Shown here piece after piece: positions 40,930 to 56,967 of a stretch of 64,000 bases of DNA. Each line of letters opens with the position of its first letter. Positions within the stretch are counted from its first letter, which is position 1. The position numbers and the translations under genes were made by a program. Source of the DNA: a virus; IMG/VR virus record IMGVR_UViG_3300041956_000050, positions 32,001 to 96,000 of that record; one strand, 5' to 3'. Under the pieces are notes generated by a model. That model had not been told where the DNA came from. It was given only the letters and a program-made list of their open reading frames with translations, and made no database searches.

Positions 40930-42441
40930 TCATGACTGCTCCTTCTCAAGCTCTCTGCGCATCCGGCGCTCGCGAGCGATCCTGATGCCTCGGGGGATGC
41001 TTTTCTCGGCCGGAGCCGCGACGTAGTTATCGATCCACGACAGCGACCCACGGTCGAGTCGCTCGATGGCGCGGGTGACGCTGACGTAGCTCAGCATGCA
41101 CTCGCTCTTGACAGGTCCGGACGGCGTACCGTCCTCGTTCATCGGCTCGCGGAAGTCCGGGCCGATCTTGACCGACTGCCACTCACGGCCCTTGGACTTG
41201 TGAGCGGTGCTGACGATCACGCTGGCGTAGCGCTCATCGACAGCTTTGTTGGCCACGTCCATCACCGTCTCGACACCGTAAGTGTCAATCAAGTTGACGA
41301 ACACCTTCAGGTCGGAGCCACCCTCGCCATGCACGTACTGACTGACCTCGGTCCAGTTCTTGAAGCCGATCAGTTCGGGGTGGTAGGTCTGCTCGCCGCG
41401 CATCAGATCGCGCGCTGCCTCAGCGAATGCGCGGATCTCGCCAGTGCCACCGACGATGGCCACCTGCTGATTGGCCTGCTGCTGATGCAGTGCCTCGGCC
41501 ACCACGCCTGCGTTCGTGCGGCACAGGATCGCCTTCGCCGTGTCAAGCATGGCGATCTCAGACGGGATCTCCTTGAAGCCCTTCAGCCGCAGCGGTGCGT
41601 CGATCTGGTCGAGCCACTTGTTGGCCTCGTCCGCAATGGCAGGGCCGAAGCGGAAGCTCTGTGACAGCGTGAGCTTGTGCGGGGCATCGAAGCGGTCCAT
41701 CGCGTCCTCAGCACCACGCCAGGCGTAGATCTGCTGCGCAGAGTCACCGACCATGATGATCTGTGCGTCCTGATTCTTGACAACTCCCTCGATGCAGGGA
41801 TTGGCGTCCTGCGCCTCGTCAAGAAGCACGACATCGAACGGCAGCTTCGGGTTGGACAGCGCCCACAGCTTGAGGTAGATGTCGTGCTGGAAGCGCAGCT
41901 TGCCGTTGGTGTCGATCAGGTCGTGCCACGCCTTGACGGCGTAGGGGGCGACCATCTCGGCAAGCTCGCGGAAGTAATCCTCCGCACCGGGAATCCACGG
42001 TACGTGCCGGGAGGTGATCTGTGCGTCGGCTGAGTAGCAGAACTTCTTCACCGTCTCCAGCGCCAGCAGCGCCAGCTTGACGGGTCCGTACTGCGCCTCA
42101 CCCCACGCCACGCCCTCCTTGATGCCAAGGATACTGGCACTTGCTTTGGCTGACACACGCGGTGCGTCGAGCCGGGACTTGAACTGCACGCCAACTGCGC
42201 GGAAGGCGAAGCTGTGCGCCGTAGCGGCAGTAGTGTTGCCGCCGAACTTCTTCTTGGCGTCACCAGCGATGGCGCGGTTGTAGGCGATGTAGCCAAGCTG
42301 CTCGTACTTCGGCTTGGCCCTGGCGATCTGCGTGAGGTTGGTCGTCTTACCGCAACCTGCTCCGGCCTGCACGACGATGTTCTCGCCGGTCAGACTGGCC
42401 TCGATGATCGCTTCCTGCTCGGGTGTTGGCTTGTTTGCCAC
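40930..42441 (-). CDS. UvrD/Rep-family SF1 helicase
   Basis: AGAGCGKT, DEAQD, VGDSAQQIYAWRGA, SFRF, STAHKSKGREW, YVSVTRA. Confidence 0.92.
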   Translation of the reverse strand: MANKPTPEQEAIIEASLTGENIVVQAGAGCGKTTNLTQIARAKPKYEQLGYIAYNRAIAGDAKKKFGGNTTAATAHSFAFRAVGVQFKSRLDAPRVSAKASASILGIKEGVAWGEAQYGPVKLALLALETVKKFCYSADAQITSRHVPWIPGAEDYFRELAEMVAPYAVKAWHDLIDTNGKLRFQHDIYLKLWALSNPKLPFDVVLLDEAQDANPCIEGVVKNQDAQIIMVGDSAQQIYAWRGAEDAMDRFDAPHKLTLSQSFRFGPAIADEANKWLDQIDAPLRLKGFKEIPSEIAMLDTAKAILCRTNAGVVAEALHQQQANQQVAIVGGTGEIRAFAEAARDLMRGEQTYHPELIGFKNWTEVSQYVHGEGGSDLKVFVNLIDTYGVETVMDVANKAVDERYASVIVSTAHKSKGREWQSVKIGPDFREPMNEDGTPSGPVKSECMLSYVSVTRAIERLDRGSLSWIDNYVAAPAEKSIPRGIRIARERRMRRELEKEQS

Positions 42442-53202: not shown

Positions 53203-53838
53203 TTAGTAGCTGACCGAGTTGACGGTGATGCCAGCCTTCGGCACGCAGAACGCCCACACGTTGACGGCCATCGGATCGACCGTCGAGTGACCGCCAGCGT
53301 TGCCGCCGAACTGGACGATCCAACCGTCAAGACGGTTGTCCTTCGGCGTGTTCGTGTTCCAGTCCATGCGACCGGGGAAGGACGACGACACCGGAGTGTT
53401 ACGGTTCCAGTCGCCAGTCTGGACAACCTGCACGCCGCCACTGATGGCAACGTAATCCTGCGAGCGGCCCTGATCGGCGGGATCGCACGCGACGGTGGCG
53501 ATGGCACCCTGATTGGCGTTGCTGTACTTGGCAACGCTGTAGAAGCCACCCATGACACCGGGGTGACCGTTCTTGCCAGCGGGACCGGTGTCACCCTTGA
53601 CACCCTGCGGACCCTGCGGGCCACGCGCACCGGTCGCGCCAGTGGCACCCTGCGCACCGGGCACACCCGGCTTGCTGAGCAGCTTCTGGACGCCGGGGGA
53701 GAGGTCACGCTTGTGGACAGCGCCGTTCTGGATGTTCTTGCCGGTGATCATCTCCGGCACGCCAGCGGCGTTGGCAGCCGGGACAGCGAGAGCGATGGCA
53801 GCGGTCGTTGCGATGGCGATGGTACGAATGCGCTTCAT
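53203..53838 (-). CDS. Secreted collagen-like protein
   Basis: Signal peptide; ITGKNIQNGAV; about 14 GXY repeats. Confidence 0.8.
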   Translation of the reverse strand: MKRIRTIAIATTAAIALAVPAANAAGVPEMITGKNIQNGAVHKRDLSPGVQKLLSKPGVPGAQGATGATGARGPQGPQGVKGDTGPAGKNGHPGVMGGFYSVAKYSNANQGAIATVACDPADQGRSQDYVAISGGVQVVQTGDWNRNTPVSSSFPGRMDWNTNTPKDNRLDGWIVQFGGNAGGHSTVDPMAVNVWAFCVPKAGITVNSVSY

Positions 53839-53924: not shown

Positions 53925-54230
53925 CTAGAGCGCCTTGACGGTGACGCGGATCTTCTGCGGCTTGCCGAGCGCCGCATCCTGCTCCTGCGAGAGATAGACC
54001 GGCGAGGAGCCGTTGTCGCTGATCTCCTCGAAGCGGACACCGCCGCCCGACTGCGGCTCGTGCGGCTTGATCTCGCGGGTCGTGCGGTCGCGCTTGCCGC
54101 GCTGCATCGTGATCGTCACGCTGTCCTGCTCGCGCTTGGGGGTGCGCGTGCGGGTGGCAGCGGGCTTCACCGTCGTCGTGTTCTTCTTGACGGTGGACTT
54201 GCGGGTACGACGGGTGGCGGTGGTCGCCAT
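53925..54230 (-). CDS. Hypothetical protein with a basic N-terminal tail
   Basis: AGGAGG SD. Confidence 0.65.
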   Translation of the reverse strand: MATTATRRTRKSTVKKNTTTVKPAATRTRTPKREQDSVTITMQRGKRDRTTREIKPHEPQSGGGVRFEEISDNGSSPVYLSQEQDAALGKPQKIRVTVKAL

Positions 54231-54286: not shown

Positions 54287-54378
54287 TACCGACAACCCTT
54301 GCGGTCGTCAGCGCGAGCACACACTCGCGAAGCCGCCAGTGTTGGCGGACTTTCGGCTGTTTTCAGCCGTTGTCGGTA
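54287..54378 (-). ncRNA. Hammerhead ribozyme variant, five-way junction (copy B)
   Basis: UACCGACAAC-[GGCUG AAAA CAGCC]-GAAA-G(U)CCGCCA ACAC UGGCGG-CU-U-[CGCGAG UGUGUG CUCGCG]-CUGACGA-[CC GCAA GG]-GUUGUCGGUA. Confidence 0.82.
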
Positions 54379-54551
54379 TTGACAACGATCACCCAGTTGG
54401 CATCGGGGTGCATTCCCCAGCGCGCCATGAACAGCGCGGCCGACAGCGTGCCGTCGTCATACTTGTTCATGTCAAGCCCGACCTCCAGTGCCTCGTCAAC
54501 GGAGTTGACAGTAAGCTCGGGCCAGTCGGACGAATATATGACACTTGTCAT
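54363..54551 (-). CDS. Hypothetical protein; stop codon lies inside ribozyme copy B
   Basis: AAAGGAG SD. Confidence 0.6.
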   Translation of the reverse strand: MTSVIYSSDWPELTVNSVDEALEVGLDMNKYDDGTLSAALFMARWGMHPDANWVIVVNTDNG

Positions 54552-54573
54552 ATGTGCTCCTTTGCAGGGGTTT

Positions 54574-54846
54574 TCAGTTGCAGCAGACGGGACCGTGATC
54601 AGTCTCGATCACGTCCGGCCACCAGCTAGGCCGCACGCGGATACCGCAGCGCTCGCGCCCGCCGATCTTGCCCGAGGGCATTACCGCGCAGCCGATGATG
54701 TCAATTTCGACATCATTCATGTCCGCGAAATGCTCCGCATCGCGCTCGATGACATCGTACATGTCATCATGCACCCTGTAATAGCGGCGAGCGATGAAGC
54801 GGCCAGTGGCGAAGTCGGTGAACTCGAACGGGAATGTGTTACGCAT
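54574..54846 (-). CDS. Hypothetical protein
   Basis: GAAAGGAG SD. Confidence 0.6.
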   Translation of the reverse strand: MRNTFPFEFTDFATGRFIARRYYRVHDDMYDVIERDAEHFADMNDVEIDIIGCAVMPSGKIGGRERCGIRVRPSWWPDVIETDHGPVCCN

Positions 54847-54874
54847 AATGACATGCTCCTTTCAGGGTTTGATA

Positions 54875-55120
54875 CTAGCGCCAGCTACTGCGGCGACGCT
54901 GATTGTCAGCGAACCACGCCTCGTAATGGCGCTCGGACAGTGACAGCGGCACGACATTCGCGCCCGAGCCGATGGCCGGATCGACCATCAGCGTCTCTGC
55001 CGCCATTACTGACAGCGGCGGCTGCTTGGGTGTGCGCTTGCGAGCCGGACGCTTACGCGGCGGCTCAACGGTGACGACAGCGGTCTGGACAGCCGCAATC
55101 GCGGCATCGAAGTCGAACAT
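54875..55120 (-). CDS. Hypothetical protein
   Basis: GGAGG SD. Confidence 0.55.
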   Translation of the reverse strand: MFDFDAAIAAVQTAVVTVEPPRKRPARKRTPKQPPLSVMAAETLMVDPAIGSGANVVPLSLSERHYEAWFADNQRRRSSWR

Positions 55121-55121
55121 G

Positions 55122-55340
55122 TCAGCATCCCTCCGGACGCGAGTAGGTGACAAAGCCATCGGCCTGGACGTGAGCGTCAAGCCAACGGCACCCAACGGGG
55201 CGCGTGAGAATGGCGTCACCGTTGACGGTATCGTCAGCGATGTGCTGCCAGTCGTCGCCCATAAGGGCGATACGCGCCTTCTGCGCATCGGTGAGCGGAT
55301 TCATGTCACGGAACGCTTCCCGTAGGGCCATGTCACGCAT
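55122..55340 (-). CDS. Hypothetical protein
   Basis: GAAAGGG SD. Confidence 0.55.
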   Translation of the reverse strand: MRDMALREAFRDMNPLTDAQKARIALMGDDWQHIADDTVNGDAILTRPVGCRWLDAHVQADGFVTYSRPEGC

Positions 55341-55371
55341 ATTGTTCACCCTTTCCTTGTTTGATCCTACC

Positions 55372-55668
55372 CTACGCCACGTAGGGGTCGTAGTTGTAGA
55401 ACGTTCCGACCTCACTGTCAGTGATCGGAGCGCACGCCTCAGCGTCCGCCTCCAGTCGCCGGAGCGTGCGCTCCAGCGCAGCCAGCGCACGGCCGGAGCC
55501 AACGCGAGGGTCGGCGGTGCCGGAGAAGACCTCGATCTTCGCACGCTTGGCACCCTGAGCCTGCGACTCTCCGAGCCAGACCTGACGCCCATTGGGCAGG
55601 ATCGCGGCGATCACCGTGGTGCCGACATTCGTCGGAATGGCAACCGTATCGAGCGTAGTGGTGAGCAT
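55372..55668 (-). CDS. Hypothetical protein
   Basis: AAGGAG SD, just downstream of ribozyme copy A. Confidence 0.65.
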   Translation of the reverse strand: MLTTTLDTVAIPTNVGTTVIAAILPNGRQVWLGESQAQGAKRAKIEVFSGTADPRVGSGRALAALERTLRRLEADAEACAPITDSEVGTFYNYDPYVA

Positions 55669-55690
55669 TACTGTTTACTCCTTACTGGAA

Positions 55691-55777
55691 GTGTCTGATC
55701 CCCCGTAGGGTCATCAGCGAGGGCACACACCCTCGAACGCCCGTAGGCGTTTCGGCCGTTTTCGGCCGATCAGTCAC
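55691..55777 (-). ncRNA. Hammerhead ribozyme variant, five-way junction (copy A)
   Basis: CUGAUC-[GGCCG AAAA CGGCC]-GAAA-CGCC UACG GGCG-U-U-[CGAGGG UGUGUG CCCUCG]-CUGAUGA-[CCC UACG GGG]-GAUCAG. Confidence 0.82.
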
Positions 55778-56896: not shown

Positions 56897-56967
56897 GTGT
56901 TTCGGCCTTCCCGAAGGGCCATCCTCAGGCACTTTGTCAGCAAAGCTGACAGGGGACTGTGCGACAC
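56897..56967 (-). ncRNA. Type III hammerhead ribozyme with one extra U after A9
   Basis: GUGU-C^GCAC..(UGUCAGC UUU GCUGACA)..GUGC-CUGAGGA-U-GGCC CUUCGGGAA GGCC-GAAACAC; GUC cleavage triplet. Confidence 0.8.

Follow-up and report, generated by a model that had tools for sequence, protein, structure and literature searches.

We identified two elements on the minus strand of a virus genome (IMG/VR record IMGVR_UViG_3300041956_000050, 108,063 bp, ~96% complete) that carry the full hammerhead ribozyme core in a connectivity outside types I-III, outside the six permutations of the hammerhead blocks and outside the Rfam hammerhead models. Unless another contig is named, coordinates are those of the window, the 64,000-nucleotide stretch analysed here (bases 32001-96000 of the record). 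In element A (55773-55695) and element B (54378-54287) each of stems I, II and III is capped by a loop, and the ends of the chain exit through a fourth helix that is inserted, together with a small hairpin, between A9 and G10.1 of the core. The elements are very likely real, conserved hammerhead-core RNAs. Judging from their sequence, it is likely that they are cis-acting hammerhead ribozymes, predicted to be active, whose connectivity is absent from searchable papers.

Two hammerhead elements opened between A9 and G10.1

Sequence reading and folding give the same helix order in A and B: from 5' to 3', the closing helix, the stem II hairpin, GAAA, the stem III hairpin, U17, the stem I hairpin, CUGANGA, the small hairpin, and the second strand of the closing helix. 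The core residues C3 U4 G5 A6 N7 G8 A9, G12 A13 A14, A15.1-U16.1, H17 (U) and G10.1-C11.1 are all in the correct register. An earlier note on this DNA had reported two minus-strand elements with a full hammerhead core, and the sequence at both sites reads as it claimed. The parts of the two elements are given below, where counts over four copies include two elements of a related phage that are described further on.

Element A
55768..55773 (-): closing helix, 5' strand CUGAUC, pairing with 55695-55700; 5/6 pairs compensatory among the four copies
55754..55767 (-): stem II, GGCCG-AAAA-CGGCC; G10.1 is 55767 and C11.1 is 55754
55750..55753 (-): G12 A13 A14 A15.1 (GAAA), invariant in all four copies
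55737..55750 (-): stem III, (A)CGCC-UACG-GGCG(U), with A15.1-U16.1 as the outer pair
55735..55736 (-): predicted cleavage site, U17 (55736) / C1.1 (55735), from hammerhead numbering
55718..55735 (-): stem I, CGAGGG-UGUGUG-CCCUCG; 5/6 pairs covary
55711..55717 (-): core C3-A9, CUGAUGA
55701..55710 (-): small hairpin, CCC-UACG-GGG, immediately 3' of A9
55695..55700 (-): closing helix, 3' strand GAUCAG, with the core CUGAU as its alternative partner

Element B
54287..54378 (-): whole element
54378-54369 with 54296-54287 (-): closing helix, strands UACCGACAAC / GUUGUCGGUA
54368-54355 (-): stem II, GGCUG-AAAA-CAGCC
54354-54351 (-): GAAA
54351-54331 (-): stem III, with one bulged U
54330 / 54329 (-): predicted cleavage site, U17 / C1.1
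54329-54312 (-): stem I, CGCGAG-UGUGUG-CUCGCG
54311-54305 (-): core, CUGACGA
54304-54297 (-): small hairpin, CC-GCAA-GG

The cuts predicted earlier, 55736/55735 and 54330/54329, fall at U17/C1.1 and are placed correctly by hammerhead numbering. Element A had been drawn from 55691 to 55777. Of this extent the junction-proximal closing helix (55773-55768/55700-55695) stands, while the outer GUG/CAC pairs are not conserved in the other copies. In all copies A9 is followed by a hairpin of 2-4 bp and the closing helix, and G10.1 lies ~60 nucleotides (nt) upstream of A9. The insertion at the A9/G10.1 step thus consists of ~16-24 nt of helices plus the chain ends, and the structure is a fully nested five-helix multiloop.

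The minimum free energy (MFE) structures computed by RNAfold for the exact A and B intervals are the proposed five-helix structure, at -46.0 and -47.4 kcal/mol. The fold z-scores are -5.8 for A and -5.0 for B, and none of the shuffled sequences was as stable (0/200). Both the MFE folds and the alignment place helices I, II and III directly against the core in the canonical hammerhead register, with G10.1-C11.1 beside G12. A strict pattern had A and B as its sole matches in the window and in the whole 108-kb genome, where dinucleotide shuffles gave an expectation of 0.00 matches. B came up at 54 bits (E ~1e-12) with a covariance model built from A alone, which recovered no other site in the window.

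A pattern scan of metagenomes yielded a 6.9-kb contig, L141 (Ga0105091_10003317), which carries two more elements with the same layout:

L141 405-317: M1, 63 bits with the model built from A and B
L141 989-899: M2, 39 bits with the same model; not picked by the pattern

The contig is from a relative of this phage, because a collagen-like gene adjoins the elements in both loci and homologues of that gene and of a helicase gene of the window occur on ~107-112 kb metagenome contigs. M1 keeps the AAAA and UGUGUG loops; its stem I is GGGUGA/UCAUCC, and its stem III, small hairpin (CUCC-AUUU-GGAG) and closing helix differ from those of A and B. The loops of M2 differ, with stem II reading GGCUU-CGCUA-AAGCC and the stem I loop UAACGCG. 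When 3-4 flanking nt are added, the competent hammerhead fold is the MFE structure in all four copies.

In the four-copy alignment all modelled pairs are standard in every copy (23/23), 16/23 have changed on both sides, and each of the five helices shows compensatory changes. None of 500 column shuffles reached any of five covariation measures, and sliding the pairing partners by 1-3 columns lowered the pairing to 32-48%. The earlier note quoted covariation between A and B for the closing helix, stems I and II and the small hairpin, and this covariation holds; its view that all three stems are closed and the ends leave through a two-helix insertion at A9/10.1 is supported by the folds and the covarying helices. 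The helices of all copies can be read by eye from the sequence. Thirteen core positions are invariant across the four copies, N7 being U or C and H17 being U. Invariance extends over C3-A9 except N7, G12-A14, A15.1-U16.1, U17, G10.1-C11.1 and the GGC/GCC of stem II, in which the three junction-proximal pairs are fixed and the two distal pairs covary. Three copies combine an AAAA loop with a UGUGUG loop. In the fourth both are replaced, by CGCUA and UAACGCG, which could form a 3-bp CGC/GCG contact. This joint change of loops I and II fits the loop-loop docking of natural hammerheads, a docking that four sequences cannot prove.

Comparison with known hammerheads

The block model of Eckert et al. 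2023 (PMC10085705) describes hammerheads by the blocks C, G and S and derives six possible permutations. Its authors take the CUGAnGA-stem II block as uninterruptible, stating that known hammerheads carry at most 1-2 nt between CUGAnGA and the stems beside it. The layout described here lies outside all six permutations because block C itself is split at A9/10.1: A9 is not followed by 10.1 with at most 1-2 nt inserted, and the ends leave through none of stems I, II and III. The SGC, CSG and GCS permutations (PMC10085705) resemble it in that they too are natural hammerheads with unexpectedly connected blocks and an intact core, found by covariation in environmental sequence. In these permutations the blocks C, G and S are unbroken and rearranged, giving pseudoknots and no multi-stem junction, whereas the elements described here have the GSC order, a divided block C and a fully nested structure. 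The core insertions listed by Perreault et al. 2011 (PMC3088659) are A6a, U13a and 2a/2b, and none is like a helix insertion at A9/G10.1. Some hammerheads, such as a type III-like element of this genome (56967-56897, described below), carry an extra nucleotide after A9 and are thus interrupted at the same A9/G10.1 step, but by 1-2 nt only. The full-text literature, in which subscription-only papers are not searchable, held no description of such connectivity, in line with the earlier suggestion that the topology had not been described.

The Rfam hammerhead models (clan CL00010) gave no match to any of the four copies, at the gathering threshold or at E<=10, and the few matches to other families were at chance level, with no ribozyme family among them. 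As a positive control, the type II model RF02276 scored 40-50 bits on four ordinary phage hammerheads on two other contigs:

L030 281-348, 849-915 and 1419-1485 (-): three type II matches to RF02276 at ~570 nt spacing on one IMG/VR contig
L031 2462-2526 (+): type II match to RF02276

That standard type I-III descriptors would miss the permutation had been predicted in the earlier note. A sub-threshold Rfam match to DUF3577 RNA was seen at 54307-54381 (-), spanning the stem II hairpin, GAAA and stem III (18 bits against a gathering score of 42.6, E 2.2). This match is probably due to chance.

Type II hammerheads (GSC; RF02276; PMC3088659) are the nearest known form. They share with A and B the core, the GAAA-stem III-H17-stem I-CUGANGA order, the clustering between phage genes and the G10.1-C11.1 pair abutting G12. 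We asked whether the elements are ordinary type II hammerheads misdrawn, or resemble hammerheads by chance. The shared order is what speaks for a type II structure, and the descriptor written for this order also recovers the true type II copies on L030 and L031. In a type II hammerhead, however, the 5' strand of stem II directly follows A9 and stem II is open, whereas in these elements a loop closes stem II, the strand in question is upstream, and A9 precedes the small hairpin and a separate closing helix. The sequences that follow A9 (CCCUAC, CCGCAA, CUCCAU and CCCAUC) cannot pair with the strands before GAAA (CGGCC, CAGCC and AAGCC), whose partner lies on their own 5' side. RF02276 scores the controls and none of the four elements even at the permissive cutoff, and the pattern expectation of 0.00 and the E-values of the covariance model exclude chance. 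A misdrawn type II hammerhead or a chance resemblance is thus not supported by these tests and is very improbable.

Hammerhead descriptors and the Rfam models assume that stem II directly follows CUGANGA, as does the 2023 block model of permutations. If the four elements are ribozymes, a natural, conserved and covarying hammerhead opened at A9/G10.1 would make this contiguity assumption too strict and add a topology beyond the six permutations. Current surveys would then undercount phage ribozymes.

Competing folds, predicted catalysis and the closing helix

The 5' closing strands of A (CUGAUC), B (CCGACAAC) and the two L141 copies (UUGAUC and CUGACU) resemble the core CUGAYGA. The core-like strands lie at the following positions:

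55768-55773: 5' closing strand of A
54369-54376: 5' closing strand of B
L141 400-405: 5' closing strand of M1
L141 983-989: 5' closing strand of M2

Because of this resemblance the 3' closing strand can pair either with the core or with the 5' strand, and an alternative hairpin between the core and the 3' strand can form in all four copies. Covariation for the alternative helix was not significant, since 73 of 500 shuffles reached it.

Several points weigh against reading the elements as hammerhead ribozymes. In the model-aligned intervals of A, M1 and M2, a fold that sequesters the core lies within ~1-2 kcal/mol of the competent fold. The interval of B is truncated to 6 of its 10 closing pairs, and there the core pairs with the 3' strand in the unconstrained fold, which is the more stable by 6 kcal/mol. 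These are nearest-neighbour energies, in which tertiary contacts are ignored. The Rfam hammerhead models are silent on all four copies. The A9 phosphate and the N7 of G10.1 form a known metal site, so that catalysis could suffer from a two-helix insertion there. All four copies have U at H17, and minimal constructs with U17 are slower than those with C17. The four examples come from two related phages, and their shared ancestry inflates the covariation counts, which are not counts of independent events. The alignment was also fitted to the model, which favours the proposed structure.

Alternatively, the elements could be conserved structured RNAs that derive from hammerheads and are no longer catalytic, serving instead as stabilising 5' or 3' structures, as recognition sites for proteins or RNases, or as intergenic translational insulators. 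Such a reading draws on the near-isoenergetic fold that hides the core, on the lack of an Rfam match and on the position of the insertion, which falls where Eckert et al. 2023 (PMC10085705) allow no interruption. It leaves unexplained why 13 core bases, unpaired or at the junction, never vary while 16/23 helix pairs changed on both sides, and why U17, A15.1-U16.1 and G10.1-C11.1 were all retained. We consider loss of catalysis unlikely, and prefer the reading of the elements as hammerhead ribozymes that are predicted to cleave after U17.

For a cleaving hammerhead of this layout we infer the following junction geometry. Element A lacks linkers: the small hairpin abuts A9 on one side and the closing helix on the other, and the closing helix runs straight into G10.1; M2 has single-nt linkers. 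With no linkers, four helical ends meet in A, those of stem II, the closing helix, the small hairpin and the core A9/G12 stack, and they could form a perfect four-way junction. In it the C11.1-G12 strand would run on unbroken and stem II would be stacked on the core, as it is in ordinary hammerheads, with the small hairpin stacked on the closing helix. Although ~60 nt separate them in sequence, A9 and G10.1 would in this way remain neighbours in space. With the alternative stacking, the pair at 10.1-11.1 would be C-G, in reversed orientation. The natural four-way-junction form of the hairpin ribozyme, another small nucleolytic ribozyme, has its catalytic elements positioned by a perfect four-way helical junction. 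Its core is unrelated, and any likeness would lie only in how the junction holds two segments. If the elements are ribozymes of this kind, they would show that four-way junctions can stand in for a covalent link beside a catalytic metal site.

All four elements lie between a stop codon and the ribosome-binding site of the next gene, as do clustered phage hammerheads reported previously (Perreault 2011, PMC3088659). The L030 control locus likewise has three clustered type II copies. The stop codon is 39, 5 and 0 nt upstream of A, M1 and M2, respectively, and in B it is inside stem II: this stem and its loop contain the UGA (54365-54363, -) of a 62-amino-acid open reading frame (ORF; 54551-54363), so that a terminating ribosome would unfold the 5' part of the ribozyme. 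An AUG is found 24-57 nt downstream of the element in all four copies. The predicted cuts after U17 (55736/55735 and 54330/54329) would split a leftward early polycistronic transcript just upstream of the next ribosome-binding site, leaving a downstream mRNA that begins with a 5'-OH and the GC-rich stem I hairpin.

Because all three core stems are hairpins, the cleavage products would be held together only by the closing helix. In the predicted folds the 3' product, once separated, refolds into stem I and the core:3'-strand hairpin, and the separated products together are within 1-4 kcal/mol of the uncut RNA fold. This refolding suggests that the layout may provide programmed product release or an on/off switch. 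The core resemblance of the 5' closing strand could equally be a relic of the origin of the layout. It is possible, if doubtful, that the layout is a built-in conformational device, in which the 3' closing strand either holds the ribozyme together or re-pairs with CUGAN and switches it off, and after cleavage ejects the 5' product and blocks religation. If this were true, the elements would be the first natural hammerheads in which strand exchange at a junction within the core programs product release and possibly also a coupling to translation upstream. For ribozyme engineering, the predicted structure offers a scaffold with three closed stems whose products are held only by an exchangeable helix.

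The same strand exchange might instead regulate cleavage itself. The 3' closing strand would toggle between the core (off) and the core-like 5' strand (on), and cleavage would depend on a free 5' strand. The 5' strand could be occupied by a ribosome that terminates on the upstream ORF, and re-pairing after cleavage would expel the 5' product. The core-like 5' strands, the alternative hairpin open to every copy, the small energy difference between separated products and uncut RNA, and the upstream stop codon, which in B is inside the element and elsewhere precedes it by 0-39 nt, are consistent with such a switch. The non-significant covariation of the alternative helix argues against it, as does the possibility that the core resemblance is such a relic, and the nearest-neighbour energies ignore tertiary docking. 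We regard regulation of this kind as quite improbable.

Neighbouring genes, further searches and a type III-like element

Genes from ~57,000 down to ~28,000 are on the minus strand, and a promoter-like site is found at 57653-57626. The ORFs that follow the two elements are:

55372..55668 (-): 98-amino-acid ORF with an AAGGAG ribosome-binding site and an AUG start 27 nt downstream of A; no PHROG family
53925..54230 (-): 101-amino-acid ORF with its AUG 57 nt downstream of B; the collagen-like gene (53838-53203) is next

The collagen-like gene (53203-53838, -; L141 411-875, -) encodes a secreted protein with a short Gly-X-Y run and a conserved N-terminal ITxKNIxNG motif, and adjoins the elements in both phages. 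The two proteins match over their N-terminal part (BLASTP E 1e-7). We found 96 metagenome homologues, several on ~88-114 kb contigs, and no homologue in cultured phages. Its PHROG matches are tail-fibre families and run through the collagen repeat only. A superfamily I helicase is encoded at 40930-42441 (-), with 67-85% identical homologues on ~107-112 kb metagenome contigs. Homologues of the collagen-like protein are also found on contigs of this size, once together with the helicase on one 108,829-bp contig. Cellular homologues of the helicase in Micromonospora, Actinoplanes and Nocardia are ~50% identical, and its best matches in cultured phages are to Streptomyces phages (38%). These sequence relationships suggest an uncultured clade of actinobacterial phages, and the phage that carries A and B is probably actinobacterial.

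Searches for further members of the family covered several collections. Scans of IMG/VR by DNA patterns and by proteins gave no further member, and a pattern scan of one genome per prokaryote species gave 11 chance matches and no member. None was found in 151 Actinomycetes genomes searched with model R3. Cultured phages held no further member, no DNA match to the phage and no helicase more than 38% identical (<=38%). IMG/VR queries with the neighbour protein and the helicase gave no close relative, and the IMG/VR loci with a collagen-like gene (L241-L246), together with their whole records, contained no element. Because the patterns need fixed bases and cannot express structure, the negative scans say little about the rarity of the layout.

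Some candidates from these searches were rejected. L003 and L004 are AT-rich coding sequence with chance matches, L144 is without stem I, and in L375 the GAAA is a hairpin loop. A weak candidate at L277 6467-6539 (+) has a full core and scores 19 bits with R3 (z -0.2), and was not counted. Two folds are open to it, a type II hammerhead (GGC/GCC) in which 2 nt follow A9, or one that has a CCAA/UUGG outer helix and a local GGC-AAC-GCC hairpin, and it might be an intermediate form or chance.

A generic genome scan for CUGANGA-hairpin-GAAA found one further such element, a type III hammerhead-like element at 56897-56967 (-) with C3 at 56928, 1.1 kb upstream on the same strand. It had no Rfam match at E<=10, and its MFE fold does not recover the layout (z -0.3). 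Its sequence reads GUGUC/GCAC ... GUGC CUGAGGA U GGCC..GGCC GAAAC ACAC. Stems I and III have 4 bp each, loop I contains a 7-bp hairpin, and A9 is followed by an additional U. Together with A and B, it places three hammerhead-like elements within the first 3 kb of the leftward gene unit.

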